Shown here one piece after another: positions 26,143 through 59,740 of a DNA stretch of 64,000 bases. Every line of letters begins with the position of its first letter. Positions within the stretch are counted from its first letter, which is position 1. The notes beneath the pieces were generated by a model, which did not search any database, was not told the origin of the DNA, and saw only the letters and a program-made list of their open reading frames with translations. The stretch is taken from IMG/VR virus record IMGVR_UViG_3300045988_170206, positions 1 to 64,000 of that record, one strand, 5' to 3'. The position numbers and the translations under genes were made by a program. This DNA comes from a virus.

Positions 26143-26168
26143 TTTGACTCCCTAGTGTGTCTAGCTGG

Positions 26169-28481: not shown

Positions 28482-28491
28482 GGTTGTGTCC

Positions 28492-31091: not shown

Positions 31092-31115
31092 GTTCTATAA
31101 CCTTTCGAGCGTCTG

Positions 31116-32075: not shown

Positions 32076-32128
32076 GCCCCTATTTTACTGTGTTTTTGAC
32101 GGTAAAGGCTGGTATGTGGGGTGCGTGT

Positions 32129-37926: not shown

Positions 37927-37940
37927 TTGCTTAACCTTTC

Positions 37941-38723: not shown

Positions 38724-38770
38724 TGGGTCATTTGCCTTTGCGTGAGCGTGTGCGTGTTGTGGATGTCGAT

Positions 38771-38807
38771 GAGGGCAGGGGAGCTGGCATGTTGCTCCCC
38801 TGCCCTC
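38771..38807 (-). terminator. Intra-operon hairpin (attenuating terminator or mRNA stabiliser)
   Basis: Perfect 14-bp stem GAGGGCAGGGGAGC (38771-38784) / GCTCCCCTGCCCTC (38794-38807) with a 9-nt loop, 8 nt after the stop of 38815..39780. No T-tract. Confidence 0.45.
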
Positions 38808-38814
38808 GAGCGGA

Positions 38815-39780: not shown

Positions 39781-39804
39781 TCTTCGGTGTCTTTCTGTGT
39801 CGAT

Positions 39805-44197: not shown

Positions 44198-44958
44198 AGT
44201 TCGCTCACTCTCACTTGCGCTTGGAGGTGGAGGATCACCTGCTGGGGTGTGGTGAAGTCGGGGTGCGCGTTGAGGATCGCGACGATGAGGGGCAGGGGGA
44301 TGTGGGCGCTGCCGGAGGCCATGTTCTCGGCCCATTCTGCGAAGGAGTAGCCCTGGCGCTTGTAGGCTGACAGGTTGAGGTTCACGGTGCCTGTTGCGTG
44401 GGTTTCGCGTACTGCTCCGACGCGGAGTCCAGCGTCCATGAGGGCACGTAGTCGGCGCATGTGGGCGGTGAGTGCCTGCTGTTTGCCCTGGGGTGGGAGC
44501 TTGGCCCATTGGAGGAGGTCAGCGTCGATAGCGAGTGCTGGTTCCATGAGATCCACCCATGAGAACAGGTCCGTGTAGGTGGAGCTGTAGGGAGCGTTGT
44601 GGAGGATGTTGAGGGCGGGCGCGTACCAGGTGGCGGGGTTGCGTGTTGGTAGGAGAGTGTCGGGGGCCGTGTGCTTCAAGGGGCTGGGCGCGTGGTCTTG
44701 GAAGGCGACGTAGTAGAACTCTGAGCGCAGGGCTGCGTTGTTGTGCCCGTAGGGGCGGTTGCGGGGATCCTTAGCGGCTTCTGGCGTTGGGGAGATCGGC
44801 GCGCTGCCTGGACCGGCTGGCCCCATTGCTGGGGGCTGCGGGATGGGTGCTGTAGGGACAATCGGGCCGGAGAGGACGCTCTGGGGGCCGCGGAGTGTGA
44901 AGGTTTTGTTGTGGCGCACGAAGATTCGTAGCGCACTTTTGATGCTAGTAGAGGTCAT
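44194..44958 (-). CDS. Hypothetical protein (254 aa)
   Basis: ATG start overlapping the end of the upstream gene by 14 nt. No motif recognised. Confidence 0.6.
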   Translation of the reverse strand: MTSTSIKSALRIFVRHNKTFTLRGPQSVLSGPIVPTAPIPQPPAMGPAGPGSAPISPTPEAAKDPRNRPYGHNNAALRSEFYYVAFQDHAPSPLKHTAPDTLLPTRNPATWYAPALNILHNAPYSSTYTDLFSWVDLMEPALAIDADLLQWAKLPPQGKQQALTAHMRRLRALMDAGLRVGAVRETHATGTVNLNLSAYKRQGYSFAEWAENMASGSAHIPLPLIVAILNAHPDFTTPQQVILHLQAQVRVSEL

Positions 44959-46027
44959 TGTTGTACTCCTCGAGGGTGGCGTTTGGTGTCATCGTGTAAG
45001 TGACGACATGGCCGGGTGCGGCGTGCGTAATTCCTGGTTCGGCGGCGTGCTCGACGGTGATTTGGTCCAGTGGTGGGAGAGGGACGGATGAGGGGAGTCC
45101 TGCGAGGTCGGGGTCGTCGATGCTGATGGTATCGCCGTTGAGGTGGAGAGTGAGACTGTCTCCATAGGTGAGTGGGCCTGCGAGCCCGAGGTCGATGAAT
45201 GGGGGGCGGGCGAACAGGTCGGTGGGTTCGAGGCTGGAGTACTCGTCAGGGAAGGCGACCATCTGTCGCCCGAGGGTGAAGTCGATGGTCCACCATCCGC
45301 CTCGTGAGCGCCATTCGTTCTCGTCAAGGCGCGCCGGTAGTGGGGCATCGTCGGTGGCGAAGTGTTCCCAGGCCCATTTCTGCCAGGGTTGCCCGTCGTG
45401 TGTGCGCATCCAGTTGAGTGATGCGTCTGTGAGGGGCGTGTGTTGGCCGGTGGAGAATTGGCCGTCGAGGGCTACCCACATGTCGAAGCCTGCGGGGAGC
45501 GCGTCGAGGGCTTCGATCATGGGCGTGGTGGTGCCGATGGTGTTGTGGAAGAGTTCTTGCACGTCGGGGTGTTCCCACCATGTATGGAAGGTGGGCATTC
45601 CTTGTCCGAAGGTGCGTGCCTCGAGGATCCATCGGCAGTTGGGGGTGTTGGTTTTGCGGCGTTCGAGGCGGGTGTCTGCGTCGAGTGTTTCTTGGTTGGT
45701 GTGCAGGTCGAGGAGGTGTGTGCGCCAGCGGAGGGCCTGCCATGCGTCGTAGATGATCTGCTTATCGTCGTCGGTGATGAAAGGGTCGTCTTTGATGGTG
45801 GAGTAGGCGAGTCGGTAGTGGGCTGCTGTGGTGATGGCTGTGCCGTCGAGCTTCCAGCTGAGGGTGGGGATGATGGAGCGCGCAACGTCGTGCAGCTCCG
45901 TCTTGTTGAGGATCCACGGTTGGGTTTGCGCGTAGGCGAGGTAGAGGTTCGCGAGGTGCAGCTTGTAGAGCCCGAAGTAGGACAGGGCGCTCACGGTGCG
46001 TTTTTCGAGGGTTTCGATGCTGCTCAT
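44945..46027 (-). CDS. Hypothetical Trp-rich protein (360 aa) translationally coupled to the sortase gene
   Basis: ATG at 46027 in an ATGA overlap with the sortase stop. The His/Arg-rich 34-aa extension in the ORF track was rejected. Confidence 0.6.
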   Translation of the reverse strand: MSSIETLEKRTVSALSYFGLYKLHLANLYLAYAQTQPWILNKTELHDVARSIIPTLSWKLDGTAITTAAHYRLAYSTIKDDPFITDDDKQIIYDAWQALRWRTHLLDLHTNQETLDADTRLERRKTNTPNCRWILEARTFGQGMPTFHTWWEHPDVQELFHNTIGTTTPMIEALDALPAGFDMWVALDGQFSTGQHTPLTDASLNWMRTHDGQPWQKWAWEHFATDDAPLPARLDENEWRSRGGWWTIDFTLGRQMVAFPDEYSSLEPTDLFARPPFIDLGLAGPLTYGDSLTLHLNGDTISIDDPDLAGLPSSVPLPPLDQITVEHAAEPGITHAAPGHVVTYTMTPNATLEEYNNDLY

Positions 46028-46911
46028 GCGTCCCCCTGTGGTCGTGGGCGTTTCTTCTTGGGTATCGCCATGACGATGCCCGTGGTGAGAGCGCCGAGGG
46101 ATGCGGCTCCCATGAGACGCATGTACCAAGGTAGGGGTGTGATTGTGTTGAGGATGAACTCGACGGGGCCGGGAGTCGTTGTTGTTGCAGCGGGGTCTGT
46201 TTCGGGGTTGTAGGGGATGCGTTCGCCGGTGACGAGGAGGCGGTGGGAGTTGACTGCGTAGGGGGTGCAGGTCATGAGGGTCACGAGGTCTTTGCCGGGG
46301 ACGGGGGCGAGGGCTTCGATTTGGTCGGGTGTGATGACATCAATGCTGGTGACTTCGTAGGCGAGGGTTTCGCCGTACACGTCCACGTAGAACATGTCGC
46401 CGACCTTTACGTCGCTGAGGCGGTCGAAGAGTGTGGCGCTGCGTAGGCCTGTGTGGGTGGAGAGGACGGGGCGGGTACCCGTGTCGCCGACGGGGAGTGC
46501 TGTGCCGTAGAGGTGGCCTGCGCCGGTACGCATGGCTTCGTCACTGGTGCCATGGTGGACGGGTAGGTCGATGCTGACGTTGGGGACTCTGATGCGAGCC
46601 ATTACGTCGGTGTCGGCGAGTTGGTGCAGGTAGTTGTCGTAGGCGGCTGCGTCGTGTTCACTCGGGGCAGTGTAGGGGTCGGCGAGGGGAACGCCTGCGA
46701 GGGACTGGTTGTAGGCGTGAGCGTCGCGGAGTGCTTGTTCGACTTTCTCGGGCTGCTGTCGCTTGAGGGTTTCGGCCTGCTGGGCTTGCTGGGCTGCTGC
46801 TTCGCGCGCCTGCTGATTCTCCCAGATGGTGCCTACAGTGGGGTAGGCGAGCATGAGGGCGACGGCGAGCATGAGTGCTGCTGCGAAGCGTCGCATGGTT
46901 GCTGCCTTCAT
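46024..46911 (-). CDS. srtC: Class C (pilus-assembly) sortase
   Basis: N-terminal anchor FAAALMLAVALMLAYP, catalytic His in VLSTHTGL, Cys in LVTLMTCTPY (TLxTC) and Arg in HRLLVTGER. C-terminal TM + KKKRPRP typical of class C. AGGAAGGGAAG RBS. Confidence 0.9.
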   Translation of the reverse strand: MKAATMRRFAAALMLAVALMLAYPTVGTIWENQQAREAAAQQAQQAETLKRQQPEKVEQALRDAHAYNQSLAGVPLADPYTAPSEHDAAAYDNYLHQLADTDVMARIRVPNVSIDLPVHHGTSDEAMRTGAGHLYGTALPVGDTGTRPVLSTHTGLRSATLFDRLSDVKVGDMFYVDVYGETLAYEVTSIDVITPDQIEALAPVPGKDLVTLMTCTPYAVNSHRLLVTGERIPYNPETDPAATTTTPGPVEFILNTITPLPWYMRLMGAASLGALTTGIVMAIPKKKRPRPQGDA

Positions 46912-47023
46912 GACTTCCCTTCCTGCATTGACGTTACCGTATAAAGAATATCATCTGTCTAGGGTTTTCCAGATGAATTGCTGCTGTTTGTCCCGTGTTA
47001 TGTAGTCGATTTTGAGGCATGGG

Positions 47024-47068
47024 GAAGCCCCGCGCTTCGCAGCATGTGGCCGGTCAGCGCGGGGCTTC
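47024..47068 (-). terminator. Hairpin terminator after the major pilin gene
   Basis: Perfect 12-bp stem GAAGCCCCGCGC (47024-47035) / GCGCGGGGCTTC (47057-47068), 13 nt after the stop at 47081. Followed on the minus strand by an AT-richer ~110-nt gap before the sortase gene. Confidence 0.55.
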
Positions 47069-47080
47069 AAGAGGCAGGGG

Positions 47081-48727
47081 TCAGGCGGTCTCGCCCTGCT
47101 TGCTGTTGCGGCGCGAACGGAAGGCGAAGAACCCAGCTGCGCCCGCCATGATGGTAGCGGCAGAGCCGATCAGGCCGATGCCTGCGCCACCCGTGAACGG
47201 GAGGAGCTGCTTCTTTGTGTCCACGATGGTGCGGGAACCACCCGCGTTGTCCGTGGTGTCTGCGTCGCGCTGTGCGTCGGCGAACGCTGCGGCCATGTCA
47301 GTGACCTCACCGGCGACAGTCAGGTCGAACTTGACGGGGCTCGGTAGGAGGTTGTAGCCCTCGGGGGCCTTGGACTCGACGAGGCAGTAGGAGTGCAGGT
47401 CGGTCTGCTCTGCGCCGTTGTACCAGTTGGAGAGCTGGAGGCCGGAGACCTTTGTGAGGCCCTGAGCGTCGGTGGGTGCAGACGTGGCGATGGGCTCGCC
47501 GGAGACGGCGGCAGCGTCACAGACGGTACCACCTGTGGCGCGGTAGACCTTGAACTCCGCGCCCGCGAGCACAGTGCCGTCAGTCCCCGTCTTCTTGAGC
47601 ACGATGTCACCGTACTTGGAGACGACCTCGGGCGACTTTGGCGGCTTGTTGGGGGTCTCAGGCGGGGTGTTGCCGGGGGTGCCCGGCTTGTTGCCGTTAT
47701 TGATGAGCCAGTTGTTTGACGGGATGAACCAGGCCTGGTTCTTCAGCTCACCCGTGACGTTGTTCGCCGTCACGCGGGTGACGATCTCGACGGTGAACTT
47801 CTTGCCGGTGTTGGCGGCGAGCTTGTTCAGGCCGTCCGATGTCACGGACCAGCCGAGCTGGTTGCCGGTCTGGGAGAGCACGTAGTCCGCGCCTTCGGTG
47901 AGCGCAGTGTCGCCGACGGAGACCTTGCTGGACACGTACTCGGTGCCCTCGGGGAGGGTGTCCTGCACGTAGTAGTAGCCCAGGTCTGCGCCGTTGACCT
48001 GGCCGTCGCCGTTGCTGTCACCTGCGAGGACGGTGGAGGCGAGTGTGTAGGTCAGGTTCTCGCCGACCTTGTAGCCGTCCTGGTTCTGGGTGCCGGTGTT
48101 GCCGTCCTTGACGGTCTTCTCGATGCTGTTCTCCGTGTTCTTCGGGTAGATGTCGATGTCGTACATCCAATCCGAGTGATTACGAGGGTTCGTCTGAGGC
48201 ATGATCGCCAGGAACGGCGCTGCTGGCGTGATCGCCGATGCGTCACCTGGGTAGTTCGCCAGGTTCTCGTTGACGATGTACACACCGAGCTCGACGGTCG
48301 CTGATGCGTCGCCGGTGGCGTTGGTGGTGACGCTCGTCGCCTTCGTGAAGGTGTAATCCTTGCCGTCGATGGACAGCTTGCCGGAGGCGACGATCTCCGG
48401 GGTGAGCGTGAGGTCCGCGGCCTTCTCTGCGATGGCCATGCCTGCGGTGGAGTGCAGGTCGATGCCGTCGATCTTGTAGAGATCGAACGTCACGTCGGCG
48501 AGGGGTTCGCCGAGTGCCTGGCGGGCCTGGTCGGAGAGCGGCGTGCCGTCAGCGCGGGTACCGCTCTCCACACCCTTGATCTTGTGGATCTTGATGGTGC
48601 CCTGGGTGGGGCCACCGTCGAGAATGGGGCTGGGGGCTGCGTTGGCGATACCTGCGCCCATGAGGCTCACGAGCGCGAGGGCGGCGGTCGCGGATGCGAC
48701 GGTGTATCGGTGGGTCGTCTTCTTCAT
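47081..48727 (-). CDS. Major (shaft) pilin, SpaA/FimA-type LPxTG protein
   Basis: Signal peptide ...GAGIANAAP, pilin motif DIDIYPKN, E-box YCLVESKAPEGYNLL, and sorting signal LPFTGGAGIGLIGSAATIMAGAAGFFAFRSRR. GAAAGGAAC RBS. Confidence 0.85.
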   Translation of the reverse strand: MKKTTHRYTVASATAALALVSLMGAGIANAAPSPILDGGPTQGTIKIHKIKGVESGTRADGTPLSDQARQALGEPLADVTFDLYKIDGIDLHSTAGMAIAEKAADLTLTPEIVASGKLSIDGKDYTFTKATSVTTNATGDASATVELGVYIVNENLANYPGDASAITPAAPFLAIMPQTNPRNHSDWMYDIDIYPKNTENSIEKTVKDGNTGTQNQDGYKVGENLTYTLASTVLAGDSNGDGQVNGADLGYYYVQDTLPEGTEYVSSKVSVGDTALTEGADYVLSQTGNQLGWSVTSDGLNKLAANTGKKFTVEIVTRVTANNVTGELKNQAWFIPSNNWLINNGNKPGTPGNTPPETPNKPPKSPEVVSKYGDIVLKKTGTDGTVLAGAEFKVYRATGGTVCDAAAVSGEPIATSAPTDAQGLTKVSGLQLSNWYNGAEQTDLHSYCLVESKAPEGYNLLPSPVKFDLTVAGEVTDMAAAFADAQRDADTTDNAGGSRTIVDTKKQLLPFTGGAGIGLIGSAATIMAGAAGFFAFRSRRNSKQGETA

Positions 48728-48752
48728 GGAGAAGGTTCCTTTCTTTTGGGGG

Positions 48753-50999
48753 TCAGTTCTCGTCGCTCGAGGCAGAGCGGCGCTTGTATGTGAGGGTCAT
48801 TCCTGCGACTCCGAGGAGCGCGATGGTGGCGATGCCTGCGATGAGGATGATGCCGGTGCCGCCGGTCATGGGCAGACGCGGGCTGACCGTGACAGGAGTC
48901 AGTTTACCCACAGTTTTGGCTGTAGATTGCGCCGACTCGACATTGCGGTTGCGCCCGTCGGAGATGCCGGTTGCGTGCGCAGTGTTTGTCACATCGCCCT
49001 GTCGGATGTCGTCGTCGTTCGTGTCGGATGTGGCCGTGCAGGTCATGGATGCGCCTGCGTCGAGCGTCGTGCCGGGGCATGTGACCGTTGACAGGGGCTT
49101 GTGGCCGTTGTAGGAATCCTCGACGACGGTCACGTCGTGCAGGCTGATGTCGCCGGTGTTACGCACGGTGAAGGTCCAGGTGAGTTTGTCGCCGGAGTGG
49201 AACTCTGGCTTATCTACGGTCTTCTCGATTTCGAGCGCCGGCTTGGCGGGGACGTAGGTGGATGAGTCGGAGGACGGGTCGGACGTGACAGGGATGCCTG
49301 CGGGGCTCATGCCGGTGGCCTTCGCCGTGTTCGTGATGGTCTTGCCTGCGTCAGGGAAGTCAGCGTCCACGAGGGGGCTGGTGATGTTCTTCCAGGTGCA
49401 GGTGTTGCCGGGCTGGACGGTTGCGCAGGCTTCGGTGACGGTGTTGACGGTGTTCGGGTCGGTGCCTGTGTAGCCGCCGTCGTAGGTGTCGTCGATGATG
49501 TGGACGTTCGTCAGGGGGACGTTGCCGGTGTTGGTGGCCGTGTAGGTCCAGTGGAGTTCCGTGGCCGTGTCGCCGTAGGTCTTTTCGGTGACGGTCTTAG
49601 TCAGGGCGATGGAAGGGGTTTCGGGGGTGAAGGTGCCGTGCCATTCGCGTGCTTCGCCGGAGCGCGCCCAGGTGTCGATGATTCGACCGTCGCCGTGCGT
49701 TCCTCGTTCTGACAGCGCACATTCGGGGTGGAGCTTCGGGTTCGCGTTGTTCACGTTCCAGCCGTGCACACCGGAGGGGGTGTCGGAGTTTACGCCTGCG
49801 AGAGCTTCCCATGGGGTGCGGGTGTTCTCTACGTAGCGGCAGGACGTGAGGTTACGGTCGTCCCAGTAAACGGTTGCGTCACCTGCGGAGGGGCCGTTGA
49901 GGGCCTTGATGGTGAGGCCTCCAAGCATTTCTACGTCACTGAACATCAGGTGCATCTCGTTACTCGATGCGGCCTTGAGGGTCCAGTCCACGGCCTTGTC
50001 TGCGTCGATGTTGATGGTGACGCTGGTCTTGCCCTGGACGGTAGTTTCCTTGCCTGCGGCGGTGAATGTGTAGGCGGCGAACTTGTCGAGGCCTGTGATG
50101 ACTGCCTGGGCTTTGTGGTTGCCGAGGTCTTTCAGTTCGACGGTGGGGGTGCCCAGCGTCTTGGGGGTGGGGAGGATACTCTCGGGGAGGTCGGCTGCGG
50201 GGGTGGTGAAGAACAGCTTGTAGCGTTCGCCGCACTTGTAGTTGGTGCGGTAGTGGTTGACCCAAGAGCCGGCGAGTTGCCCGTTAGGTGCGTATGCGTC
50301 GTAGCCGGAGCCGTCACGGATAGCCCAGTCGTCGTATGACTGGTAGGTCGGCTCACAGTAATCCTGCCCGTCCTTCGTGACGATCTTGTTGATGCCGGAC
50401 GAGGTGGCGGCAATGACTGACTGGATGCCACCGTACTCACGGGCCACGAATTGATACCTGTAGCCAGTCGGTGAGACAGCGATGAGGCTGACCTCGCCGA
50501 TAGAGCCCGGCTGCGGGGTTGAGGGGTTGTCCCAGTCGAAGGAGGCTCGCTGGCCGACGAACACCTTGTCGGCCCATACGCGACCTGGGATCGTCTTGTC
50601 ATCATGACTAACGGCCTGGATGTTCCAGAAGAACTGGTTGTCCGAGTACTGGTTGTTCGCGTCGATGTGGGGCACGTAGTACACCTGAAAGATGCCGTCG
50701 TGCTTTGCGTAGTGGGAGGCCATGCCGCCCTGCCACGCCGTCATGTTGGCGATGTTGCCGTCCTCGTCGAGGACGTACTCGGGTTGCTTTCCAAGGAAGG
50801 TGTACCACAGGTATTCACCCTTCTTCACGTAGACGTAGAAAACGTCGGGCGCGAAGGTGGGCGTGTTGTAGGCGGGCACCGTTTCCGCGTGTGCTGCCTG
50901 TTGGACGGTGGGGGTAGCAACAAGTCCCACTGCTGCGATGGCGGCAACTGCGAGCGCAGTAATTGCTCGCCGCAGTCGGGACGGCTTTCTGGATACCAT
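48753..50999 (-). CDS. LPxTG surface adhesin / candidate tip or ancillary pilin with DUF11-like repeats
   Basis: ATG at 50999 with GAAGGAG RBS. Signal peptide ...ATPTVQQAAHAE. Two repeats of the type TATNTGNVPLTNVHIID / TVRNTGDISLHDVTVVED. C-terminal LPMTGGTGIILIAGIATIALLGVAGMTLTYKRR. Confidence 0.8.
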   Translation of the reverse strand: MVSRKPSRLRRAITALAVAAIAAVGLVATPTVQQAAHAETVPAYNTPTFAPDVFYVYVKKGEYLWYTFLGKQPEYVLDEDGNIANMTAWQGGMASHYAKHDGIFQVYYVPHIDANNQYSDNQFFWNIQAVSHDDKTIPGRVWADKVFVGQRASFDWDNPSTPQPGSIGEVSLIAVSPTGYRYQFVAREYGGIQSVIAATSSGINKIVTKDGQDYCEPTYQSYDDWAIRDGSGYDAYAPNGQLAGSWVNHYRTNYKCGERYKLFFTTPAADLPESILPTPKTLGTPTVELKDLGNHKAQAVITGLDKFAAYTFTAAGKETTVQGKTSVTINIDADKAVDWTLKAASSNEMHLMFSDVEMLGGLTIKALNGPSAGDATVYWDDRNLTSCRYVENTRTPWEALAGVNSDTPSGVHGWNVNNANPKLHPECALSERGTHGDGRIIDTWARSGEAREWHGTFTPETPSIALTKTVTEKTYGDTATELHWTYTATNTGNVPLTNVHIIDDTYDGGYTGTDPNTVNTVTEACATVQPGNTCTWKNITSPLVDADFPDAGKTITNTAKATGMSPAGIPVTSDPSSDSSTYVPAKPALEIEKTVDKPEFHSGDKLTWTFTVRNTGDISLHDVTVVEDSYNGHKPLSTVTCPGTTLDAGASMTCTATSDTNDDDIRQGDVTNTAHATGISDGRNRNVESAQSTAKTVGKLTPVTVSPRLPMTGGTGIILIAGIATIALLGVAGMTLTYKRRSASSDEN

Positions 51000-51081
51000 A
51001 TCTGCTCCTTCTGGCTGATGTTTCCTGAACAATCCTAGCATTTTCCAGGTGCCCCTCTTCTACTTGTATCGGGGCATGTCG

Positions 51082-51128
51082 AAGGGGGAGGGGATTCCAA
51101 CATGGTGCTGGTCCCCCTCCCCCCCCTT
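51082..51128 (-). terminator. Imperfect G/C hairpin between the giant surface-protein gene and the adhesin gene
   Basis: AAGGGGGAGGGGA (51082-51094) pairs with TCCCCCTCCCCCCCCTT (51112-51128) with a one-base bulge. Lies 16 nt after the stop at 51144. Confidence 0.35.
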
Positions 51129-51143
51129 ATCGGTGAGCGCGGG

Positions 51144-54100
51144 TCAGTTGTCCGCGTTCTTGCGTCGGCGTGCCAACACGATCAGCGCTGCGGCTGCTGC
51201 GAGGATGCCGCCTGCGGCGCTGGTTGCGAGCACGTGGTGGCGGATCCAGTTGATGACCTGCCCGAAGGTGGAGGCGTTGACATACACGTCGCTGATAGTC
51301 GTCTCGGTGACGTTGCCTGCCATGTCGGTGGCCTTGAGGACAACCGTGTGCGCGCTCGTGGACTGCGGCAGAGTGCCCGTGTAGATCCCATTCTCGTCGG
51401 AGAGGAGCTGCATAGGCTTTCCGTCCACCTGGGCCTCGAGAGTCACGGTGGTCATGTCTCGGGGGGTGACGGTGAAGTCGCGGCTTTCGGAACGGTAGGC
51501 CGCGTCGGTTCGGATGCCGGACACCTGGAGCTCAGGGTTCGTGGAGTCCACGACGAAGGAGTAGCTGAGGCGGCTCACCTGGTCGAGGCCTCCCTCAGTC
51601 TGGGAGACAACCTGGATGAGGTAGGTGCCTTCCTTCTGGAATGCTGCCTTGTCGATGTGGTAGGCGTACACGTAGTCCCCGGCGTCTCCGCCCGTGCGGG
51701 TGGTGGACTGGAGCGCGGGGGCGACGGGGTAGGGTGCGCCGTCGAGGGTGACCTTGATGTCGGTCTTGTCCTCGTTGAGGGCTTCGACGGTGGTCTCCTC
51801 GAGGTCAACGTCCACGGGGGCTTGGAGGTAGCGGCCCTGGTAGTTGGTGCCGGTCACGTCCACGTTGGAGCCGTAGCGGTTGAGGATGAACTCGACGCTG
51901 GCGGTCTGGTCGTTGCCTGCGAGGTCGGTGCCCTTGATGGTGAGGGTGTAGAGGTCGTCGTACTTGGCTTCATCGGGGATCTCGGAGAGGTCGAGGTAGC
52001 CGCCGCTGACTGCGGGCTTGAAGACGTTGCCCTTGCGGCCTACGAGGACGGCGGTGACGCTGCTCGTGTCCGCGTTGGTGTCACTGTAGGTCACGCCGAC
52101 GGTGGGGAGCTGGTAGTAGGCGGTGCCCTTCGTGAGGCCACTGATGCTGATTTCCGGCTTCGTGGTATCGACGATGAACTCGCCTTCGGTGACCTCGTTG
52201 CTGGGGTTGCCTGCCTGGTCGGTGGTGCGGAACCCGAAGGTGTGGACTCCCTCGGGGAATGTCACGGTCGCCGTGTGCGTGGATCCGACGCTGCTCCAAC
52301 CACTGATGCTGCCGGTGCCGGTGAGCTGGTTGAGGGCGGGGTCGAAGTGCTCTTCGACGACGGTGATAGTGGCAGTACGTACTTGGTTGTAGTACTTGCC
52401 GTTGCGCACGTCGGTGGTGTTCCAGGCGACGGAGACGACGGGGGCTACCTTGTCTACGGTGAAGCGGCCCGATGTGAAGGTGTTGGACTGGTGGCCCACC
52501 ATGTCCGCTGCGGACAGGGTGAAGTCGTAGTCCGTGTTGTCGGAGAACGTGATGGTGTTCGTCCAGGTGTCGCCGGAGTGGACCCATGTGCCCCACGTGC
52601 CGACGAGGCCGGTGGTGGTGAGGCTACCGGGGTCGAAGTTGTTGTCGCGGACGGTAACCGTGGCGTGGCGGTCGGTGTTGTAGAAGCCGGACTGGTTGGT
52701 CTGGTCGAACGTGACCGTGAGCTCGGGGGCGGTTGCGTCCACGCTGATGGTGCGGCGCGTTTCGGCCTCGTAGCCAGCATTGTCGGCGACGTGGATCCAC
52801 ACATCCTGAGCGGGGTATTCACCGGCGAGCGTCAGGGGGACGGATACGCCGGTGACGAGGTTCTTGTCGGTGGCGGTCACCTGGACTGCGGGGTTATCGA
52901 CCTGGCCGTCGGGGGAGACGGTTGCAGTACCCAGGGTTGTGTCACCGTATCCCCAGGTGAGGGTACGGATGCCAGAGTGTGTGGCGACGGCGGTGAGAGT
53001 GCCGGATGCGGAGTCCTTGTAGAGGGGCACGCCAGCGCTGTTGGTCGCTGCTGGGGCTCCGAGTTCGACGCTCAGGTCGGTGCTGGTGATCGTCGTGTTC
53101 GAGTCCTCGGACACGAGGCCGTCGGGGCGCTGGCTGTCGCTGATGTTGCCCACCTTGTCGGTGGCGGTAGCGGACACGAAGCCCTTGAAGCCGCTGGGGA
53201 TGTCGAACTCGGCCACGCCGGAGTTGATGGGGGCCGACTCGGTGCGGATGACGGTGCCGGACGGCGTGTAGAACGTCATGAGAGCGTTACCCATGCCCGA
53301 AGATGGGGCGGGGTCGGAGACCTGAGCCTTGATGCGTGTGGCTCCCTGAACGAACAGGCCGTAGCGGTCGGAACCGTTGATGGTCTTGCCCGGCGCGTAG
53401 GACGGGTTCACGACGACGAAGTTCGTGATCGTCGGTGCCTGGTCGTCCACGTAGAACGTGTAGTTGCGGGCACTGACGTTACCTGCGAGGTCAGTCATGG
53501 TGATGGTGACCTGGTAGGAACCATCCTCCGCGCGTGCGGCTTTCGCGTAGTCCACGTCGAGGGTTCCAGTAGTAGCGGCTTCACCGGCCTTGTCGCTGGG
53601 GTTGACGGTGGCGACTTGGGTGCCGTTGACGGTGGCTGTCATGGTGGCGATGCCATTGTCGTCGTGGGCGGTGAAGCTGTTGATCGCCCCGCTGGTTGAT
53701 GAGAACCATGTCCCATCCGTGGCAGTGATGTCGGTGGTCATCGTGGGGGCCTGAGTGTCCACGGCTGCGTGCTTGGATGGCCAGCCGAGTGCGGTTGCGA
53801 CGTGGAGTGTCTGGGAGCGGCCCAGCGGGTCGGTGACGGTGACGGTGGGGTCGTTGACGCTGCCGGTGATGGTGGCAACGCCGTCGGGGGAGACGGTCAT
53901 GCCACTGCTGGGGTCGTTGTAGGTCTGCGCGAGGCCACCGCCGCCCTGTGGGGTGAGCTGCACCTGGATGGGGGTGCGGGAGAACACGCCGTAGGGGGTG
54001 ACGTTCATGTCGCCGGGGTTGCGGACAGTGGCGTTGATGGTGGCCTGGCTGGTGGATGTGGAGATCGTGCCGGTCCAGGAGGTGCGGTGGAGGCCGCGGT

Positions 54101-55535
54101 CTGCGCCGTAGAAGTCGATCTGGTGGCGCGTGCCGTCGGTGAACTCGGACGCGGGGATCGTGAAGGTGTACTTGTTGTCGGCTTCGCGGGTGGGGGCGAT
54201 GGGGCGACCGTCGAAGATGAGGCTCATGCCGCGCGGGGAGAGGGCCTGGTCGTCGCTGAATGTGAACGTCAGGTCTTCTGTGGGGGCGGAGGTGAGCCAG
54301 TACTGGCCGTCGCCGAGGGTCTTGGCGTTGGTGATCGCGTCGGGGACGGTGAGGGTGGGGATGGTGGAGTCCACGGCTACCACGTCGGTGTCGCCGCCGG
54401 TGAAGGCGCTGAGACCGACCTCGTTGGTGAGGCCTGCTTCGTCCATGGTCTGTACCTTGTAGGTGCCTGCTTCGGTGATCGTGAATGTGAAGTTGCCGCC
54501 CTGGCGCTTGAGGGTGGTGACAACTTCGCCGTCCTTGACGAGCTCCACGGAGTACACGCCCGATGGGCTGTCGGTGGCGGTGCCGCTGATGGTGACGTTG
54601 CCGGAGGTGGCGTAGTCGCCGTATGCGTTGACCTGGCCTCCGGTTGCGCGGAGGTTGGAGAACTGCGGGCCTTCGTCGTCGTAGGGGACGTTGATGGACT
54701 GGCTGGCGGTGCGGCCAAACTCGTCGGTGATGCGCAGTGTGGCCTTGCTGGGCTTGCCAGTCAGGTTGATGGTGGCGGTGGTGCCGCTGACGCTCACCGA
54801 GTAGCCCTCATCGGTCGTTGCGGACACGATCTGCGTGTCGGAGCTGATCGTTGCCGTGAGGGCGGGGATGGTTGTGTAGAAGCCCCATGCGGGGCCGGTG
54901 GCCGGGTCGAGCATCATGGCTGTGATCGACGGTTCGCCGACGGTGGTGTGTGCGCCGAGCGTGAAGGTCGTGTTGTCCCACGTGACGGTGGGGGTACCGG
55001 ACGCGGGGACGCGACTGGTGCCGACAGTGTAGGAGCCGTCCGCGAGCGCGAGCGCGCCGGAGTCCGTGGGGATGACTCCGGTCATGGTGATGGGTGTTGC
55101 TCCGGTGTTGGTGGCGAGGATGCCCGCAGCGTACACGCCCTTGTCGGTGTGGACGATGTAGACGATGCGTGTGGGGGCTGTGATGTCGGTGGGGAGCTGG
55201 TTCACGCCCGCTGTCCCCTGGCCTGCTGCGGTGAGCGCGCCGGAAGCGTCGTAGCGGCGCATTTCGACGCTGGTGATCGTTGCGCCGGATTGTGGGGCGA
55301 TGGTGGCGGTGCCCCGCCACTTGCGAACCTGCGAGTAGTTGCCGAGGTCGAAGTCAACGGACGCTGTAGGGGCGGGCGCTGCGGTGACGGCTGCGGGTGC
55401 GACGGTGGCGGCGGGCTGGGTGGTGCCGAAAGCGTTGGTGGCGAGCGCTGCGGGTGCGACGGTGGTGGTGGCTGTGGCGAATGCCAGGAGGGCAGCGATG
55501 CGCACTGTCGTCTTGGTCGTCTTCCGGGGAGTCAT
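51144..55535 (-). CDS. Giant surface protein (1463 aa) of tandem bacterial Ig-like domains with C-terminal TM anchor
   Basis: GAAAGG RBS and signal peptide ...APAALATNAFG. At least seven domain-boundary motifs V-D-x-x-x-P-x-(L/I/V)-(T/S/Q) (VDSTIPTLTV, VDTQAPTMTT, VDDQAPTITN, VDATAPELTV, VDKVAPVVSV, VDTTKPEISI, VDSTNPELQV). The C-terminus LATSAAGGILAAAAALIVLARRRKNADN has no canonical LPxTG. Confidence 0.8.
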   Translation of the reverse strand: MTPRKTTKTTVRIAALLAFATATTTVAPAALATNAFGTTQPAATVAPAAVTAAPAPTASVDFDLGNYSQVRKWRGTATIAPQSGATITSVEMRRYDASGALTAAGQGTAGVNQLPTDITAPTRIVYIVHTDKGVYAAGILATNTGATPITMTGVIPTDSGALALADGSYTVGTSRVPASGTPTVTWDNTTFTLGAHTTVGEPSITAMMLDPATGPAWGFYTTIPALTATISSDTQIVSATTDEGYSVSVSGTTATINLTGKPSKATLRITDEFGRTASQSINVPYDDEGPQFSNLRATGGQVNAYGDYATSGNVTISGTATDSPSGVYSVELVKDGEVVTTLKRQGGNFTFTITEAGTYKVQTMDEAGLTNEVGLSAFTGGDTDVVAVDSTIPTLTVPDAITNAKTLGDGQYWLTSAPTEDLTFTFSDDQALSPRGMSLIFDGRPIAPTREADNKYTFTIPASEFTDGTRHQIDFYGADRGLHRTSWTGTISTSTSQATINATVRNPGDMNVTPYGVFSRTPIQVQLTPQGGGGLAQTYNDPSSGMTVSPDGVATITGSVNDPTVTVTDPLGRSQTLHVATALGWPSKHAAVDTQAPTMTTDITATDGTWFSSTSGAINSFTAHDDNGIATMTATVNGTQVATVNPSDKAGEAATTGTLDVDYAKAARAEDGSYQVTITMTDLAGNVSARNYTFYVDDQAPTITNFVVVNPSYAPGKTINGSDRYGLFVQGATRIKAQVSDPAPSSGMGNALMTFYTPSGTVIRTESAPINSGVAEFDIPSGFKGFVSATATDKVGNISDSQRPDGLVSEDSNTTITSTDLSVELGAPAATNSAGVPLYKDSASGTLTAVATHSGIRTLTWGYGDTTLGTATVSPDGQVDNPAVQVTATDKNLVTGVSVPLTLAGEYPAQDVWIHVADNAGYEAETRRTISVDATAPELTVTFDQTNQSGFYNTDRHATVTVRDNNFDPGSLTTTGLVGTWGTWVHSGDTWTNTITFSDNTDYDFTLSAADMVGHQSNTFTSGRFTVDKVAPVVSVAWNTTDVRNGKYYNQVRTATITVVEEHFDPALNQLTGTGSISGWSSVGSTHTATVTFPEGVHTFGFRTTDQAGNPSNEVTEGEFIVDTTKPEISISGLTKGTAYYQLPTVGVTYSDTNADTSSVTAVLVGRKGNVFKPAVSGGYLDLSEIPDEAKYDDLYTLTIKGTDLAGNDQTASVEFILNRYGSNVDVTGTNYQGRYLQAPVDVDLEETTVEALNEDKTDIKVTLDGAPYPVAPALQSTTRTGGDAGDYVYAYHIDKAAFQKEGTYLIQVVSQTEGGLDQVSRLSYSFVVDSTNPELQVSGIRTDAAYRSESRDFTVTPRDMTTVTLEAQVDGKPMQLLSDENGIYTGTLPQSTSAHTVVLKATDMAGNVTETTISDVYVNASTFGQVINWIRHHVLATSAAGGILAAAAALIVLARRRKNADN

Positions 55536-55560: not shown

Positions 55561-56211
55561 TTATTGCCAACTATGGGCTTCTGCTACCAAGGTTACGCGA
55601 CTGAGCGGGTCGGTTGGCTGCGCGGATGGTTGTGGCGCAAGGTTTGCGGCAGGAATCTCGGTGTCCTCGAAGAAGGCAGTGTCTGCTTCTTCGGTGGTTT
55701 CCGTGCTTGCGTCTGAGAAGAACGTGGTGTCGTCGTCTTCTCCGACGTTAGCGGAGCGCTCGAGCGGTGCCGGTGCGGGTGGCTGTGTGGTTCGCGTGGG
55801 GGTGTCTGCGACCTGTAGGGGTGCAGGCTGAGCTGGCGCAGGCTTGGGGGCGGCAATGGGCGCAGGGGCGACTGTGGTGGGCTGTGGTGGGGTTGGGGTG
55901 AGGTCGCCGGAGAGCACGCCGCTTGTGTCGTCGGCGAGTGTACCGCTATCGAACGAGTCACTGTTCGTCGCGTCGTTCAGGGGCGAGTGTTCACCGAGAG
56001 ATAGGGCGGACATCTTGCGGTACGCTTCGACGGCTCCGTCGCTACTCAGTGTCGAGGTGAGGGTTTCAACGGTGTCGGTGAACGCCTGTCCCTTGAGTTC
56101 CCTGCGTGCTGCTGGGATGTCCCATTGGAAGAACAGGATGAGAGCGGTGAAGAACAGGATGAGGGCTGCGACTGCGAGGCCGATTGCCGTTGCGGTGAAT
56201 ACGGTCATCAC
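55561..56211 (-). CDS. Bitopic membrane protein with Pro-rich and acidic C-terminal region (216 aa)
   Basis: The start (GTG 56211 or ATG 56208) overlaps the kinase stop (GTGATGA). TM segment FTATAIGLAVAALILFFTALILFF. Confidence 0.6.
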   Translation of the reverse strand: MMTVFTATAIGLAVAALILFFTALILFFQWDIPAARRELKGQAFTDTVETLTSTLSSDGAVEAYRKMSALSLGEHSPLNDATNSDSFDSGTLADDTSGVLSGDLTPTPPQPTTVAPAPIAAPKPAPAQPAPLQVADTPTRTTQPPAPAPLERSANVGEDDDTTFFSDASTETTEEADTAFFEDTEIPAANLAPQPSAQPTDPLSRVTLVAEAHSWQ

Positions 56212-57920
56212 TTGGTGGCTCCTTCGGCTGCGTACACAGCATCGACGAGGGTGCGGGACTGGTCGAGCTTCGTGGAGAGCTGGGCTGACAGTTCAGCCGG
56301 TCTTCCTGGTGTCGGGTTGGGGTGCTGCGTGAGGTAGTCTTTCGCGCGCTCGAGCTGCGCGTCAACGTCGGCTTTGGGCACGCCGTCGGTTCGGAGCCTG
56401 TATGTGTAGTTGTTGATGCAGTCCACGATGTAGTTGAGGAGCTGCAACTGTACGACCTCGCCGGAGTTGTCGGTGTTGAGGCTGGTGAGGTTGTTCCAGT
56501 AGGCCCGGTACATGCCGGTGTCGCTGCTGGTTTGGATCGCGGATGCGATGTCGCGGTTGAACGAGCCCATGTTGTAGAGGGCGCTCGCCTGTTCGACGTT
56601 GTAGTTGCCGCTGATCGCGTCCTTGAACCATGGGGCGGATAGGGCGAGGCCGTCGGCGTTTGCGTCGCTGGTGTAGAAAAACCAGTAGAGTTCACCGATC
56701 TGGTAAGCGAGCTCAGGGTAGCGCGGGTTGTCCTGAATGTCCTTAATGTGTTCGCGGACGAGGGGGATGAAGGCAGCTTCCTCAGCGGAGGTGAACCTGC
56801 CGTCTCCCTGCTTGATGGCGGTAATCGTGTCGAAGTATGAGTCGATGTTGGAGGGGCGCGCGTTGATGACTGGCTCCCACGCTTCGACGGTGCCGGCTTT
56901 TTGGGCAGCGCTGGTTAGTGCTGCGTAGGAGTTCGCGTCGGCGTTGGCCCCGTAGGTGTAAGTGCCCGCTGACGCTATTGACATGACGAGGGCTGCTGCT
57001 GCGAGCGCGCCGACGGTGCGGATGCGCCTGCGGTGCTTGGCTCGGTGACGACTATCGGCGGTCTTGTAGGTGTTGAGCGCAGCGATAACTTCGACCATGG
57101 ACGAGTAGCGGTCATCTGGGCGCAGGGCGACACATTTGGCGATCACGTCGGAGAGGGCGCGGCTAACTTCGGGGTTGGCTGCGTGCGCGTCCACGGGGCC
57201 TGTGGGGATGCCCCTGCGGTCGGACGCGGGAAGGTCGCCGACGAGGAGCTGGTACATCGTCATACCGAGGCTGTAGATGTCGCTTCGGATGTCGAGCGGC
57301 GCGCCCTTGGTGATCTGCTCGGGGGGCGCATATCCCTTGGTGCCGAGGGCGTGGGTGTTGATCTGATTGTCAGGGGTGATGACTTCGGCCAGGCCGTAGT
57401 CCATGAGCACCATGGAACCGTTCTGGTACATGATGTTCTTCGGCTTGATGTCGCGGTGGACGACAGGGCCGGGGTGAATATGTGGCGGGAGGGTGTGGAG
57501 GTACTGGAGGATGGTGGCGACCTGCACCATCTTGGAGACAACGAACTGCTCACTGAACCGGCCTTTGTCGGTGCGCTTGGCCGCATCAGCGAGGTCGTAG
57601 CCGCCGATGTAGTCCATGAGGACGGAGTACTTGCCACCCGGCTTGTCGGTACGATCTCGCACGTCGAGGATGCGAGGAATACCGGGGTGGGTGAGGGGCT
57701 GCATGAGGCGCGTTTCGCGCTTGAGGCTATCAACGGCGATTTTGCCGCGGCCTTTAGGGTCGGGGACGGGAGCTGCAACCTCTTTGAGGACGACGAGCTT
57801 ACCGTTCTTAGCGTCGGAAACTCCGTACACCTGGCTAAAAGTGCCGTTGTGGAGTACGGAGCTGATGACGTAGCGGTCCCCCTTGCCGAAGGTTGAGCCC
57901 TTTTTGCGCAGGTTCGTCAT
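56208..57920 (-). CDS. Hanks-type Ser/Thr protein kinase, transmembrane, with non-PASTA extracellular domain
   Basis: ATG at 57920 in an ATGA overlap with the PP2C stop. G-loop region NGTFSQVYG, Lys in LVVLKEV, catalytic loop VVHRDIKPKN, DYG (DFG variant) and GTKGYAPPE. TM segment TVGALAAAALVMSIASAG, then ~190 aa of helical-looking exported sequence. Confidence 0.85.
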   Translation of the reverse strand: MTNLRKKGSTFGKGDRYVISSVLHNGTFSQVYGVSDAKNGKLVVLKEVAAPVPDPKGRGKIAVDSLKRETRLMQPLTHPGIPRILDVRDRTDKPGGKYSVLMDYIGGYDLADAAKRTDKGRFSEQFVVSKMVQVATILQYLHTLPPHIHPGPVVHRDIKPKNIMYQNGSMVLMDYGLAEVITPDNQINTHALGTKGYAPPEQITKGAPLDIRSDIYSLGMTMYQLLVGDLPASDRRGIPTGPVDAHAANPEVSRALSDVIAKCVALRPDDRYSSMVEVIAALNTYKTADSRHRAKHRRRIRTVGALAAAALVMSIASAGTYTYGANADANSYAALTSAAQKAGTVEAWEPVINARPSNIDSYFDTITAIKQGDGRFTSAEEAAFIPLVREHIKDIQDNPRYPELAYQIGELYWFFYTSDANADGLALSAPWFKDAISGNYNVEQASALYNMGSFNRDIASAIQTSSDTGMYRAYWNNLTSLNTDNSGEVVQLQLLNYIVDCINNYTYRLRTDGVPKADVDAQLERAKDYLTQHPNPTPGRPAELSAQLSTKLDQSRTLVDAVYAAEGATK

Positions 57921-58618
57921 GCTAGTCCTTCCGTTGAGGCGAGTAAAGCGGTGATGTTGTCCTGTTCTCCCGCTGTTTGTGCGCGCGTAGCGAGGTCGTT
58001 GAGGCCTGCTTCTGTGAGAGCGTCGAGCTTGTTGCCGACGGCCTCGTAAGCGTGCCAAAACCCGTCTGAGCATAGGAGGAATGTGTCGCCACTCTGGTAG
58101 GTGCCGGTGTAGATGTCAGGGGTGTGACCGTCGGCTTTGGGCTTTCCGAGTGCGCGGGTGATGCGGCTGGCGTAGGTGCGGGCGATGTCGGGGGTGATGG
58201 TGACTCCGCGGCGCTTGAAGGCGTTGAGGGCTGAGTGGTCCTCGGTGAGCTGTGTGCCCTCGAGGGTGCCTGCTGGGATCTTGTAGGCGCGGGAGTCGCC
58301 GATTTGGAGGATCCAGTACTGGCCGTCGTAGAGGCGTAGGAGGGTGAGAGTTGTACCTCCTCCCGTGTCGGTGACCTTCTGGTGGGCGGTGGTGACGGCT
58401 TCGATGAGGGTGTCGTCAGTGATGTCTCCGGCCTTGATTGCGTCCATGTAGGTGCGGGCGGCGCTTTGGGAGGCTTGTGCGCCGTTGGCGACTCCGCCCA
58501 TGCCGTCGGCGATGAGTGCGAGGATGCCGGTCTTGCCGTCGGCGGTGAAGGTGGCCCAGGCGTAGGTGTCCTGGTTTTCTTTTCGTTGGTTGCGGTGGGT
58601 GATCGTGTGGACGCTCAT
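57917..58618 (-). CDS. PP2C-family Ser/Thr phosphatase
   Basis: RKENQDTY, LIADGMGG, LQIGDSRAY and LLCSDGFWH. ATGA overlap with the FHA gene stop. Confidence 0.85.
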   Translation of the reverse strand: MSVHTITHRNQRKENQDTYAWATFTADGKTGILALIADGMGGVANGAQASQSAARTYMDAIKAGDITDDTLIEAVTTAHQKVTDTGGGTTLTLLRLYDGQYWILQIGDSRAYKIPAGTLEGTQLTEDHSALNAFKRRGVTITPDIARTYASRITRALGKPKADGHTPDIYTGTYQSGDTFLLCSDGFWHAYEAVGNKLDALTEAGLNDLATRAQTAGEQDNITALLASTEGLA

Positions 58619-59733
58619 GCCTGCTCCTTGACGACGTTGAAGGCGACGTGGCCGAGGCGTAGGAGTGCGCCGTCGGGGACGATGGTGGGGGTGTGTGGTT
58701 GGAGGCGGTGTGCGCCGATGTGGGTACCGTTCTTGGAGCCCAGGTCGGTGACGATGACTTGGCCGTCCTGCTCGTAGATCTGGGCGTGGCTGCGGCTGAG
58801 GCTGCTGTCGCGGCTGACGCTGATCTCGCTGCGTGTGGAGGAGCGCCCGATGATGACGGGGCGGGTGAGGATCGGCCAGCTTTCCTCTGTGGTGAGGCTG
58901 TGGAGGCTGTAGGTCGTGGCCGTGGGTTCGTCGTCGTCGAAGAAGCCGGTCATGTCGTCTTCGTTGGTTGCGGCGGATGCTACCGGCTTGGGTACGACAG
59001 GCGCAGGGGCGACGGGCGCGGGGGCAGGTGCGGGGCGCACCGGGGTTTCGACAACTGGAGTTGGCGCGGGAGCCGGTGCTAGAGGTGGCGTAACCGGCGC
59101 GGGGGACTGAACGATGGGGGCCGGTGGGGCTGGAGGTTCAGGGAGCGTCGGCGCAGGGAGAGCTGCTTGTGGCTGTGGCGGCTCTGGGGCTACTACCGGC
59201 GGGGCTGGCGGCTGCGGGGTGGACGCACGGTCGAACAGGGACTTGCGTGCGGGTTGTGGGGTCATCATGGCCTCGAGCTCGGCCACCGCTGACTGTTCGA
59301 CGGCTGGGATGCTCTTGTCCTTGACTGATGAGCGTAGGGCTGCTGCGAGAGCGTCGGGAGTGCCGATGGTCGCGAGAGGACCGTTGGCGGGGGCAACGAT
59401 CTGGCTGAGCGTTACGGGCGACAGGTTGGTGGATACGAGGCGAGGTCCGCCGTTTGCGAGCGCCGCCCAGTGTGGTGCGACCTTGGGCATGATGAAGGTC
59501 CACAGGTTGAAGGTGGGGTTGTCCTGCGGCGGTGCGACGGCGACCCAGAAGTCGCCTTGGCCGTTGGTGACGATGCCGGTTGCTGTGCGGTAGTCGCCTC
59601 CTTCACGGATGAAAGCTCGCCACACGTTGATGATGCCGTCGAGGGAGGCTTTCCCGTTGAGGGTTTCGACGGGGGCGAGTCCGAGCTGCTGTGCGTGGGC
59701 TGCGGGGACGGCTGTCATTGGGGTGATGGTCAT
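58615..59733 (-). CDS. FHA-domain protein (N-terminal unknown domain, Pro-rich linker, C-terminal FHA)
   Basis: C-terminus VIIGRSSTRSEISVSRDSSLSRSHAQIYEQDGQVIVTDLGSKNGTHI (G-R ... S-x-x-H ... N-G). ATG at 59733, 8 nt after the upstream stop. The Pro/Ser-rich 73-aa extension in the ORF track was rejected. Confidence 0.8.
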   Translation of the reverse strand: MTITPMTAVPAAHAQQLGLAPVETLNGKASLDGIINVWRAFIREGGDYRTATGIVTNGQGDFWVAVAPPQDNPTFNLWTFIMPKVAPHWAALANGGPRLVSTNLSPVTLSQIVAPANGPLATIGTPDALAAALRSSVKDKSIPAVEQSAVAELEAMMTPQPARKSLFDRASTPQPPAPPVVAPEPPQPQAALPAPTLPEPPAPPAPIVQSPAPVTPPLAPAPAPTPVVETPVRPAPAPAPVAPAPVVPKPVASAATNEDDMTGFFDDDEPTATTYSLHSLTTEESWPILTRPVIIGRSSTRSEISVSRDSSLSRSHAQIYEQDGQVIVTDLGSKNGTHIGAHRLQPHTPTIVPDGALLRLGHVAFNVVKEQA

Positions 59734-59740
59734 TGTCTGC

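Follow-up and report, generated by a model that had tools for sequence, protein, structure and literature searches.

The first 64,000 nucleotides of the IMG/VR virus record IMGVR_UViG_3300045988_170206 (hereafter, the window) belong to what is apparently a large extrachromosomal replicon of oral bacteria, and at 46024–50999 on the minus strand they contain a predicted three-gene cassette for a covalent, heterodimeric pilus of the Actinomyces type. The cassette is situated between a gene for a giant surface protein with immunoglobulin (Ig)-like repeats and a backbone gene, p360, and precedes a transfer module with homology to the tip locus of the plasmid pXO16, which encodes a type IV secretion system (T4SS). 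An initial annotation of the window had proposed that the element may build its own covalent mating pilus. Our comparison of related loci indicates instead that the cassette is an old, functional and well-integrated unit specific to one clade of elements and that, on its distribution, the predicted pilus can be neither integral nor ancestral to the conjugation system. We consider it probable, with some confidence, that the pilus is an accessory organelle of adhesion or aggregation, carried by the element as cargo.

Genes of the pilus cassette

The pilin, adhesin, sortase and Ig-like protein that the initial annotation had recognized in this region were all recovered on the minus strand at the same positions. 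The last gene of the cassette (46024–46911) encodes a class C, or pilus-polymerising, sortase of 295 aa with an N-terminal signal or transmembrane (TM) segment, a DPY lid (DPY78), H153 within HTG, C215 within TLMTC and a C-terminal TM segment; it scores 90.7 bits against Pfam Sortase (PF04203) and 245.7 bits against the NCBIfam class_C_sortase model (NF033745, cut-off 160). The preceding gene (47081–48727) encodes a major, or shaft, pilin of 548 aa in the SpaH/EbpB/FimP family, identified by NCBIfam (SpaH/EbpB major pilin NF033902, 302.6 bits, cut-off 95), by its GramPos_pilinD1 and SpaA domains (PF16555, PF17802) and by its top match in the PDB, FimP of Actinomyces oris (3uxf, E 3.6e-33), with which the pilin motif and E-box are in register. 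The motifs comprise YPKN at 194–197, containing the pilin-motif residue Lys196, the E-box YCLVESKAPEGY at 447 and LPFTG at 509, behind which come a hydrophobic segment and an RSRR tail. Among named pilins, those of Trueperella are nearest (39–42% identity). The closest relatives outside the element family (47–55% identity) are surrounded by densely packed and mostly unannotated genes, in some cases on IMG/VR contigs of 209–420 kb. In six loci (L159, L174 and L180–L183; G+C 48–57%) the genes run radical SAM, pilin, a very large adhesin and then class C sortase, and an ADP-ribosyltransferase toxin-like protein is encoded in one of them (L159, from 20763).

The first gene of the cassette (48753–50999) encodes a putative tip adhesin of 748 aa; an alternative start at 51041 would extend it to 762 aa, and 50999 is probably the true start, matching metagenome gene calls. 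The protein consists of a signal peptide, an N-terminal domain of approximately 430 aa, two Ig-like domains of the DUF7507/CLIPPER (DUF11-type) kind (PF24346, 124.8 bits; PF01345), an LPMTG signal, a hydrophobic stretch and a KRR tail. The N-terminal domain is of a rare type, for which 1.84 billion proteins yielded only six representatives at E ≤ 1e-30, and residues 1–200 are the most divergent part of the protein between subclades, which is compatible with a binding head. Its placement at the pilus tip is putative, being read from the gene order. Single-sequence AlphaFold prediction of the N-terminal domain gave no usable model (predicted local distance difference test, 36), PDB sequence searches with the adhesin and with the giant protein returned no match, and no polymer adhesin (GbpC/AgI/II) or thioester domain was matched in Pfam by the adhesin, pilin or giant protein at E ≤ 0.01, nor by the adhesin N-terminal domain at E ≤ 1.

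Judged from the genes alone, three features of a sortase-assembled pilus locus are present, namely a class C sortase, a major pilin with its motifs and an adjacent LPXTG ancillary pilin. A housekeeping sortase is not encoded in the window. The sorting signal LAKTG is recognized by class E sortases and is typical of Actinobacteria, and the LAKTG substrates encoded at 1902–5149 imply that the host possesses such an enzyme.

Distribution across relatives and selection

Relatives were gathered by alignment to the YdjM-like protein that begins the transfer module (the anchor), with 10 kb on either side fetched from 68 metagenome and 69 IMG/VR loci, to which loci found through the 1628-aa protein of the same module were added. 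Window proteins were mapped on these loci by tblastn and sorting signals by pattern, identical loci were removed, and the counts given here refer to loci with enough upstream DNA. Sortase and pilin are present in 30/30 loci of the clade to which the window belongs (anchor identity at least 89%, G+C approximately 62%), in the order adhesin, pilin, sortase, p360. They are absent from all 17 loci of the sister clade (anchor identity 67–68%, 57% for the 1628-aa protein; G+C approximately 57%), which has the same backbone, T4SS and giant Ig gene, and in which p216 and the giant Ig gene are followed directly by p360 across a spacer of approximately 190 nt. A single locus (L055; anchor 68%, G+C approximately 52%) also lacks them, and here neither the giant Ig gene nor p360 was detected upstream. 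None of 49 distant relatives (anchor 24–39%, G+C 28–52%) has a pilus homologue or an LPXTG protein within the 10 kb on either side of the anchor, and no sortase or pilin was found in the three regions of pXO16 inspected. Hence, the pilus genes are not conserved together with the T4SS across the family, as those of a core mating pilus would be. It is because the sister clade and the distant relatives lack the trio that we regard the pilus as an accessory cassette and not as integral to transfer.

Where it occurs, the cassette appears to be maintained. All three open reading frames (ORFs) are intact in 30/30 loci, and between the window and a subclade of 86% identity the pilus genes have a synonymous divergence (dS) of 0.4–0.7, the same as the flanking backbone, with dN/dS of 0.13–0.19. 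Direct repeats flanking the cassette were not found, which argues that its insertion was not recent. This backbone-like divergence, purifying selection and lack of repeats, together with the overlap of the sortase stop codon and the p360 start codon described below, identify the cassette as an old, well-integrated and, by its selective signature, functional unit. One locus (L021; ERZ772956 NODE-111) is a recombinant, in which YdjM, p321 and p162 are approximately 100% identical to the window and the pilus genes and 1628-aa protein belong to the 86–88% subclade, a mosaic that shows homologous exchange between subclades.

Spacers and coupling to the backbone

Hairpins occupy intergenic gaps of the region, with the spacing that the initial annotation had described. 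Giant Ig gene and adhesin are separated by 102–144 nt, adhesin and pilin by 25 nt, and pilin and sortase by 169 nt. A G/C-rich hairpin lies just 3' of the giant Ig stop codon (51084–51123, minus strand; minimum free energy of the 105-nt spacer -49.1 kcal/mol, z -3.2) and another 3' of the pilin stop codon (47024–47068, minus strand; -39.1 kcal/mol, z -4.0). The latter has a 13-bp stem that is kept in six variants, with one AU/GC compensatory pair, and is a candidate terminator or attenuator. Since T-runs are missing from the hairpins, a simple terminator scan reported nothing on the minus strand. A block of approximately 25 nt (TAGACAGATGATATTCTTTATACGG, at 46930–46960), located downstream of the pilin hairpin and ahead of the ribosome-binding site of the sortase gene, is nearly invariant across subclades within an otherwise variable spacer, and may be an internal promoter or regulatory site. 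At its other end the cassette adjoins p360 (44945–46027, minus strand), the first backbone gene downstream, whose ATG overlaps the TGA of the sortase gene (ATGA).

TnpB-like genes of the IS605-family type, with a zinc ribbon, were seen in two variants of the pilus operon, between adhesin and pilin in one (L041, 378–1679) and between pilin and sortase in the other (L042, 2431–3555); both are intergenic. On an IMG/VR contig of 420 kb, a related Cas12f1-like TNB protein (L182, 289–1821) is encoded beside the pilus locus.

The giant Ig-like protein and its kinase module

The initial annotation had grouped the giant Ig-like protein with the pilus; it is a separate gene, conserved across the family. 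Encoded at 51144–55535 on the minus strand, the 1463-aa product has a signal peptide, a variable head of approximately 260 aa, a stalk of Big_13 and Big_3 repeats (Pfam Big_13, Big_3_3), and a C-terminal TM segment with an RRRK tail. It has no LPXTG signal and is predicted to be anchored in the membrane, not by sortase; the sequence LATSA was considered as a degenerate LAxTG signal and rejected, as it is missing from the sister-clade orthologues. Residues 260–1463 are 46% identical to the sister-clade orthologue and the N-terminal head is not alignable, while the 2402-aa Ig-like repeat protein of pXO16 is 27% identical over approximately 1100–1200 aa and shares the C-terminal TM anchor. A homologue search with the giant protein returned a 96% cluster and weak matches only, and missed the sister-clade orthologue, probably through repeat-rich candidates saturating the list.

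Upstream of the giant gene lies p216 (55561–56211, minus strand), a small acidic protein with an N-terminal membrane anchor, which also stands beside the giant gene in the sister clade (26–30% identity) and has a 283-aa counterpart in pXO16 with the same N-terminal TM segment and WDI motif. Next is a Ser/Thr protein kinase of 570 aa by metagenome gene calls (56208–57920, minus strand; the ORF reaches 58073), with a kinase domain (PF00069, 126.4 bits), a TM segment and a C-terminal extracellular domain, which is 29.8% identical over 561 aa to the kinase preceding the Ig-like giant of pXO16. The kinase is one of a trio with an FHA protein and a PP2C phosphatase (56208–59952, minus strand), and a ParM/actin-like fragment likewise lies upstream of the giant gene; the "partition/kinase genes" placed here by the initial annotation are to be read as this trio and fragment. 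The order kinase, small TM protein, giant Ig is common to the window and pXO16 (L162, 8796–18726; BTF1_RS28375/28370/28365). Since the giant Ig gene is conserved in both the sister clade and pXO16 with the same neighbours, synteny identifies the kinase–p216–giant Ig module as a conserved core feature of the pXO16-like family. That conservation makes the giant protein, a predicted surface stalk with a variable head, a better candidate than the pilus for a family-wide function in cell contact. The agr region of pXO16 encodes large surface proteins that bind recipients and strongly aid mating in liquid (PMC9673590, PMC8835621). The pXO16 kinase–giant Ig module might correspond to the aggregation factor of that plasmid.

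The transfer module

The transfer module (22403–40569, minus strand) was identified by tblastn synteny to pXO16 (NC_018516), Pfam and TM prediction, and begins 5.5 kb downstream of the sortase gene. Its order is YdjM-like hydrolase, p321, p260, 1628-aa polytopic protein, NlpC/P60, p319, two proteins of approximately 450 aa, VirB4-like ATPase, p355 and FtsK/SpoIIIE ATPase, an order shared by about 130 related loci. From the YdjM-like protein (39805–40569) to the FtsK/SpoIIIE ATPase (22403–24898), nine proteins of the window match a stretch of pXO16 (L001) in the same order. Over 638 aa, the VirB4-like ATPase (26169–28481) shares 35.5% identity (E 2e-110) with a protein of pXO16 (B. thuringiensis pBTHD789-1), and it scores 26 bits against Pfam DUF87 (cut-off 23.2). 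The FtsK/SpoIIIE ATPase (PF01580, 43 bits, cut-off 24) occupies the same position as in pXO16, with weak direct similarity (27% over 217 aa), and the NlpC/P60 protein (32129–33088) has no tblastn match in the pXO16 stretch. The 1628-aa protein (33085–37971) has approximately seven predicted TM segments, 31% identity to pXO16 and no match in Pfam, NCBIfam or PHROG; it may be a channel component. It is also the best-conserved hallmark of the family. The initial annotation had named VirB6, VirB4 and coupling-protein genes as neighbours of the pilus: VirB4-like and FtsK/SpoIIIE ATPases are indeed present, and the VirB6 label is without homology support, its candidate being the 1628-aa protein.

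The matched stretch of pXO16 agrees with the published description of tip, a locus of approximately 25 kb and 16 coding sequences, including two ATPases and one hydrolase, whose role in conjugation was shown experimentally and for which no relaxase is known (PMC9673590). A transfer function is thus ascribed to the window module by homology to pXO16, where alone transfer is demonstrated. Two proteins encoded in the module (37941–38723 and 38815–39780) are three-TM paralogues of 32–40% identity, present in two to four copies between the YdjM-like and 1628-aa genes of distant relatives. Upstream of the YdjM-like gene of L055 (2059–10001) stand about a dozen tandem genes for paralogues, of approximately 160 aa, of the HU-CCDC81-like protein encoded at 40569–41057 of the window.

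The element and its host

By its gene offsets, the window matches positions 1401–65400 of a JGI contig of 137,823 bp. The element is approximately 136–146 kb long and is represented by near-identical contigs of 135–146 kb in many human oral metagenomes, with breakpoints that differ between contigs; a contig of 292,735 bp with a near-identical adhesin is approximately twice the unit length. Together these observations suggest a circular or circularly permuted extrachromosomal replicon and not an integrative and conjugative element (ICE), a reading that we rejected given that the window has no tRNA gene and that no contig of 135–146 kb was seen embedded in a larger chromosomal contig; an integrase was not specifically searched for in the other half of the element. 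Scans of Rfam and for tRNAs and sigma-70 promoters found nothing in the window, and a megablast search of PLSDB with the 9.5 kb region gave no match.

The G+C content of the window is approximately 62%; clades of relatives stand at about 62, 57, 52, 48 and 45%, with additional low-G+C contigs of 160–290 kb. All credible genes from 5442 to 64000 lie on the minus strand, forming a co-oriented array of 58 kb. Beyond it, on the opposite strand, is a block of surface cargo (15–5149), which encodes a protein with choline-binding repeats and a metallo-beta-lactamase fold (15–1553) and two proteins with LAKTG signals (1902–3263 and 3296–5149), one of them a glycoside hydrolase of family GH16. The signs of GC skew and gene orientation flip near 5.2–7 kb, a possible site of the replication origin or terminus.

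A scan of GTDB species representatives with the YdjM anchor found distant Bacillota relatives only (a Mogibacterium metagenome-assembled genome (MAG), Clostridioides difficile CD160, Lachnospiraceae and Desulfocucumaceae), so that the host cannot be read from a genome. NCBI MAG records with a pilin of 87% identity carry the labels Schaalia sp. and Rothia mucilaginosa, both derived from binning. These labels and the LAKTG signals identify the host as an oral actinobacterium, with Schaalia and R. mucilaginosa as candidates.

Function of the pilus

From gene identities, motifs, synteny, presence or absence and selection, we infer how the pilus would be assembled, what part it would play in adhesion and whom it would benefit. 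By analogy with the FimP and SpaA systems, the class C sortase would cut the pilin at LPFTG and join it to Lys196 in the YPKN motif of the next subunit; the LPMTG adhesin would be joined first and so end at the tip, and the fibre would finally be passed to the cell wall by the housekeeping sortase of the host. The cassette would have been inserted between the giant Ig gene and p360 in one clade of a family of oral actinobacterial elements of approximately 120–146 kb, and kept thereafter under purifying selection. The pilus would change what the carrier cell sticks to, with oral surfaces or partner bacteria as candidate targets, and any gain in mating contact would be secondary, dispensable and outside the transfer machine. 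We favour this accessory role because the cassette is dispensable for the T4SS of the family, because the element carries other wall-anchored cargo, and because class C sortases are common on plasmids: by tblastn they occur on 585 PLSDB plasmids, of which 373 are predicted to be conjugative. The latter count, and a plasmid-borne pilus of Lactococcus (PMC5152845), also show that the premise of the initial annotation, that sortase pili are usually chromosomal, was too strong.

Several points weigh against the accessory reading. The sortase is translationally coupled to p360 and the cassette is placed within the co-oriented backbone array, not in the cargo block on the opposite strand; this is compatible with co-expression with element functions and leaves room for a part in mating. 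Relatives were viewed within 10 kb of the anchor, so that sister-clade elements may carry a pilus locus elsewhere, and sortases in IMG/VR were sought by exact match to the peptide LMTCTPY. The cassette may have been lost by the sister clade instead of gained by this one. Dedicated surface proteins greatly help a T4SS of this type in liquid mating, as pXO16 shows (PMC9673590), and over-expression of the pili of plasmid pSH74 in Lactococcus lactis caused aggregation and raised conjugation 16–22 fold (PMC5152845). A role for the pilus in mating contact is therefore possible.

In its strongest form, this is the proposal of a dedicated mating pilus, co-regulated with the transfer genes, which would capture recipients and stabilise mating pairs for a pXO16-type T4SS, supplementing the shorter giant Ig adhesin. 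Besides the strong reliance of pXO16 liquid transfer on plasmid-encoded surface proteins (PMC9673590, PMC8835621) and the pSH74 result, it draws on the proximity of the cassette to the tip-homologous module in the same orientation, the sortase/p360 overlap, the position beside a conserved family surface protein, and retention under purifying selection in all 30 close relatives. We nonetheless think it unlikely, if worth serious attention. Neither the sister clade, whose T4SS and giant Ig gene are the same, nor any distant relative examined, nor the inspected regions of pXO16 contain the trio; co-orientation, which the initial annotation had taken as special to the pilus region, is a property of the whole 58-kb array; strong hairpins intervene between giant gene and adhesin and between pilin and sortase; TnpB insertions occur within the operon of some variants; and the current view is that Gram-positive T4SSs encode no conjugative pili (PMC12857230). 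The initial annotation had named absence from close relatives as one finding that would count against a mating pilus, and the outcome is divided, the trio being missing from the sister clade and more distant relatives but kept in 30/30 close ones. What stands of its proposal is that the element encodes a predicted covalent pilus and a giant surface protein upstream of the transfer module; with 0/17 in the sister clade, the pilus is not core to conjugation. Its further comparison with the Gram-negative conjugative pilus extends at most to adhesion, there being no sign of a DNA conduit or of retraction in the genes. A two-tier contact system, in which a long covalent pilus with a rare tip domain would capture recipients in saliva before the kinase-linked giant Ig protein makes close contact, we regard as doubtful.

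Two other explanations seem much less credible than an accessory pilus. A viral nature of the element, with the pilus and Ig genes serving as adhesins of the virion or of lysogenic conversion, would agree with the filing of its members in IMG/VR as uncultivated viral genomes (97–144 kb), with permuted contig breakpoints, and with the co-oriented genes and many paralogues that lay behind a "phage-like" comment on pXO16 (PMC6199540). It is very improbable, however: ten large unknown proteins matched nothing in PHROG, and the VirB4-like protein nothing among 50,697 phage records; the pXO16 homologue of the transfer module was shown by experiment to mediate conjugation (PMC9673590); a ParM-like gene is present; and the 64 kb examined, which leave about 74 kb of the element outside view, yielded no capsid, portal or terminase. 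The notion of a cassette in decay, carried as a passenger and now functionless, for which the TnpB-type insertions in L041 and L042 could be cited, scarcely merits credence and is largely refuted by the selection data, in that the ORFs are intact in 30/30 loci, the motifs are intact in the window, dN/dS is low at appreciable dS and the insertions are intergenic.

Comparison with known systems

The cassette most resembles the type 1 and type 2 fimbriae of A. oris (fimQ-fimP-srtC1 and fimB-fimA-srtC2), which have the same order of tip fimbrillin, shaft fimbrillin and class C sortase, no separate basal pilin, and a host among the oral Actinobacteria; those loci are chromosomal, whereas this one lies on an extrachromosomal element of approximately 140 kb and its putative tip protein combines a rare N-terminal domain with DUF7507/CLIPPER domains. 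Class C sortases and LPXTG pilins also occur together on plasmids, many of them predicted to be conjugative (pSH74 of L. lactis, with spaCB-spaA-srtC1-srtC2, Enterococcus faecium megaplasmids, and plasmids of Clostridium perfringens and Arthrobacter). The element differs from these in host phylum, in its pXO16-type transfer system, and in having the cassette within a co-oriented backbone and coupled to a backbone gene. PrgB (aggregation substance), CluA and the thioester adhesin of pLS20 are likewise element-encoded, sortase-dependent surface proteins that could hold mating cells together, but each consists of one LPXTG protein that bears polymer-adhesin or thioester domains, and not of a predicted fibre polymerised by its own class C sortase. 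With the Gram-negative conjugative pili (F, T, P) the system shares at most a possible role in first contact; there is no homology, and the predicted pilus would be assembled covalently by transpeptidation, would not retract and is not conserved with its T4SS.

Among whole elements, pXO16 of B. thuringiensis serovar israelensis (tip and agr) shares the nine-gene tip synteny, the kinase–small TM–giant Ig module and a uniform gene orientation, reported for that plasmid previously (PMC6199540). It is a Bacillus plasmid of 350 kb, in which the Ig-like giant is approximately 150 kb from tip, compared with approximately 11 kb here. The Inocles of oral Streptococcus are also large extrachromosomal elements of the mouth, mistaken for viruses or unrecognised, with sortase and LPXTG-type proteins (PMC12340149), although they are larger (245–350 kb), have a G+C content of 24–32%, and encode sortase A and single LPXTG-like proteins without a class C pilus operon. 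Both they and a 224-kb "plasmid-like element" from saliva with remote T4SS homologues (PMC7782811) may be relatives.

Significance

The pilus itself is of a known type and its combination with a plasmid is not new. The family of elements is more novel than the pilus, and the oral actinobacterial branch of the pXO16-like family, with its kinase–giant Ig module, seems to be undescribed in the literature searched. According to reviews, the conjugation systems of Gram-positive bacteria encode adhesins but no pili (PMC12857230). A pilus dedicated to mating would, if true, change that picture, as the first covalent pilus recruited as a mating organelle in Gram-positive conjugation; the comparative data point to an add-on and not a core part. 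The wider implication is that the supposedly unique pXO16 system is a member of a broad family of elements of 120–290 kb in Bacillota and human oral Actinobacteria, many of them filed as viruses in IMG/VR, in which the shared kinase and giant Ig module supplies a concrete candidate for the contact function. By remodelling the surface of abundant oral bacteria, as their gene content suggests, these elements could influence how bacteria in the mouth co-aggregate, colonise and exchange genes.

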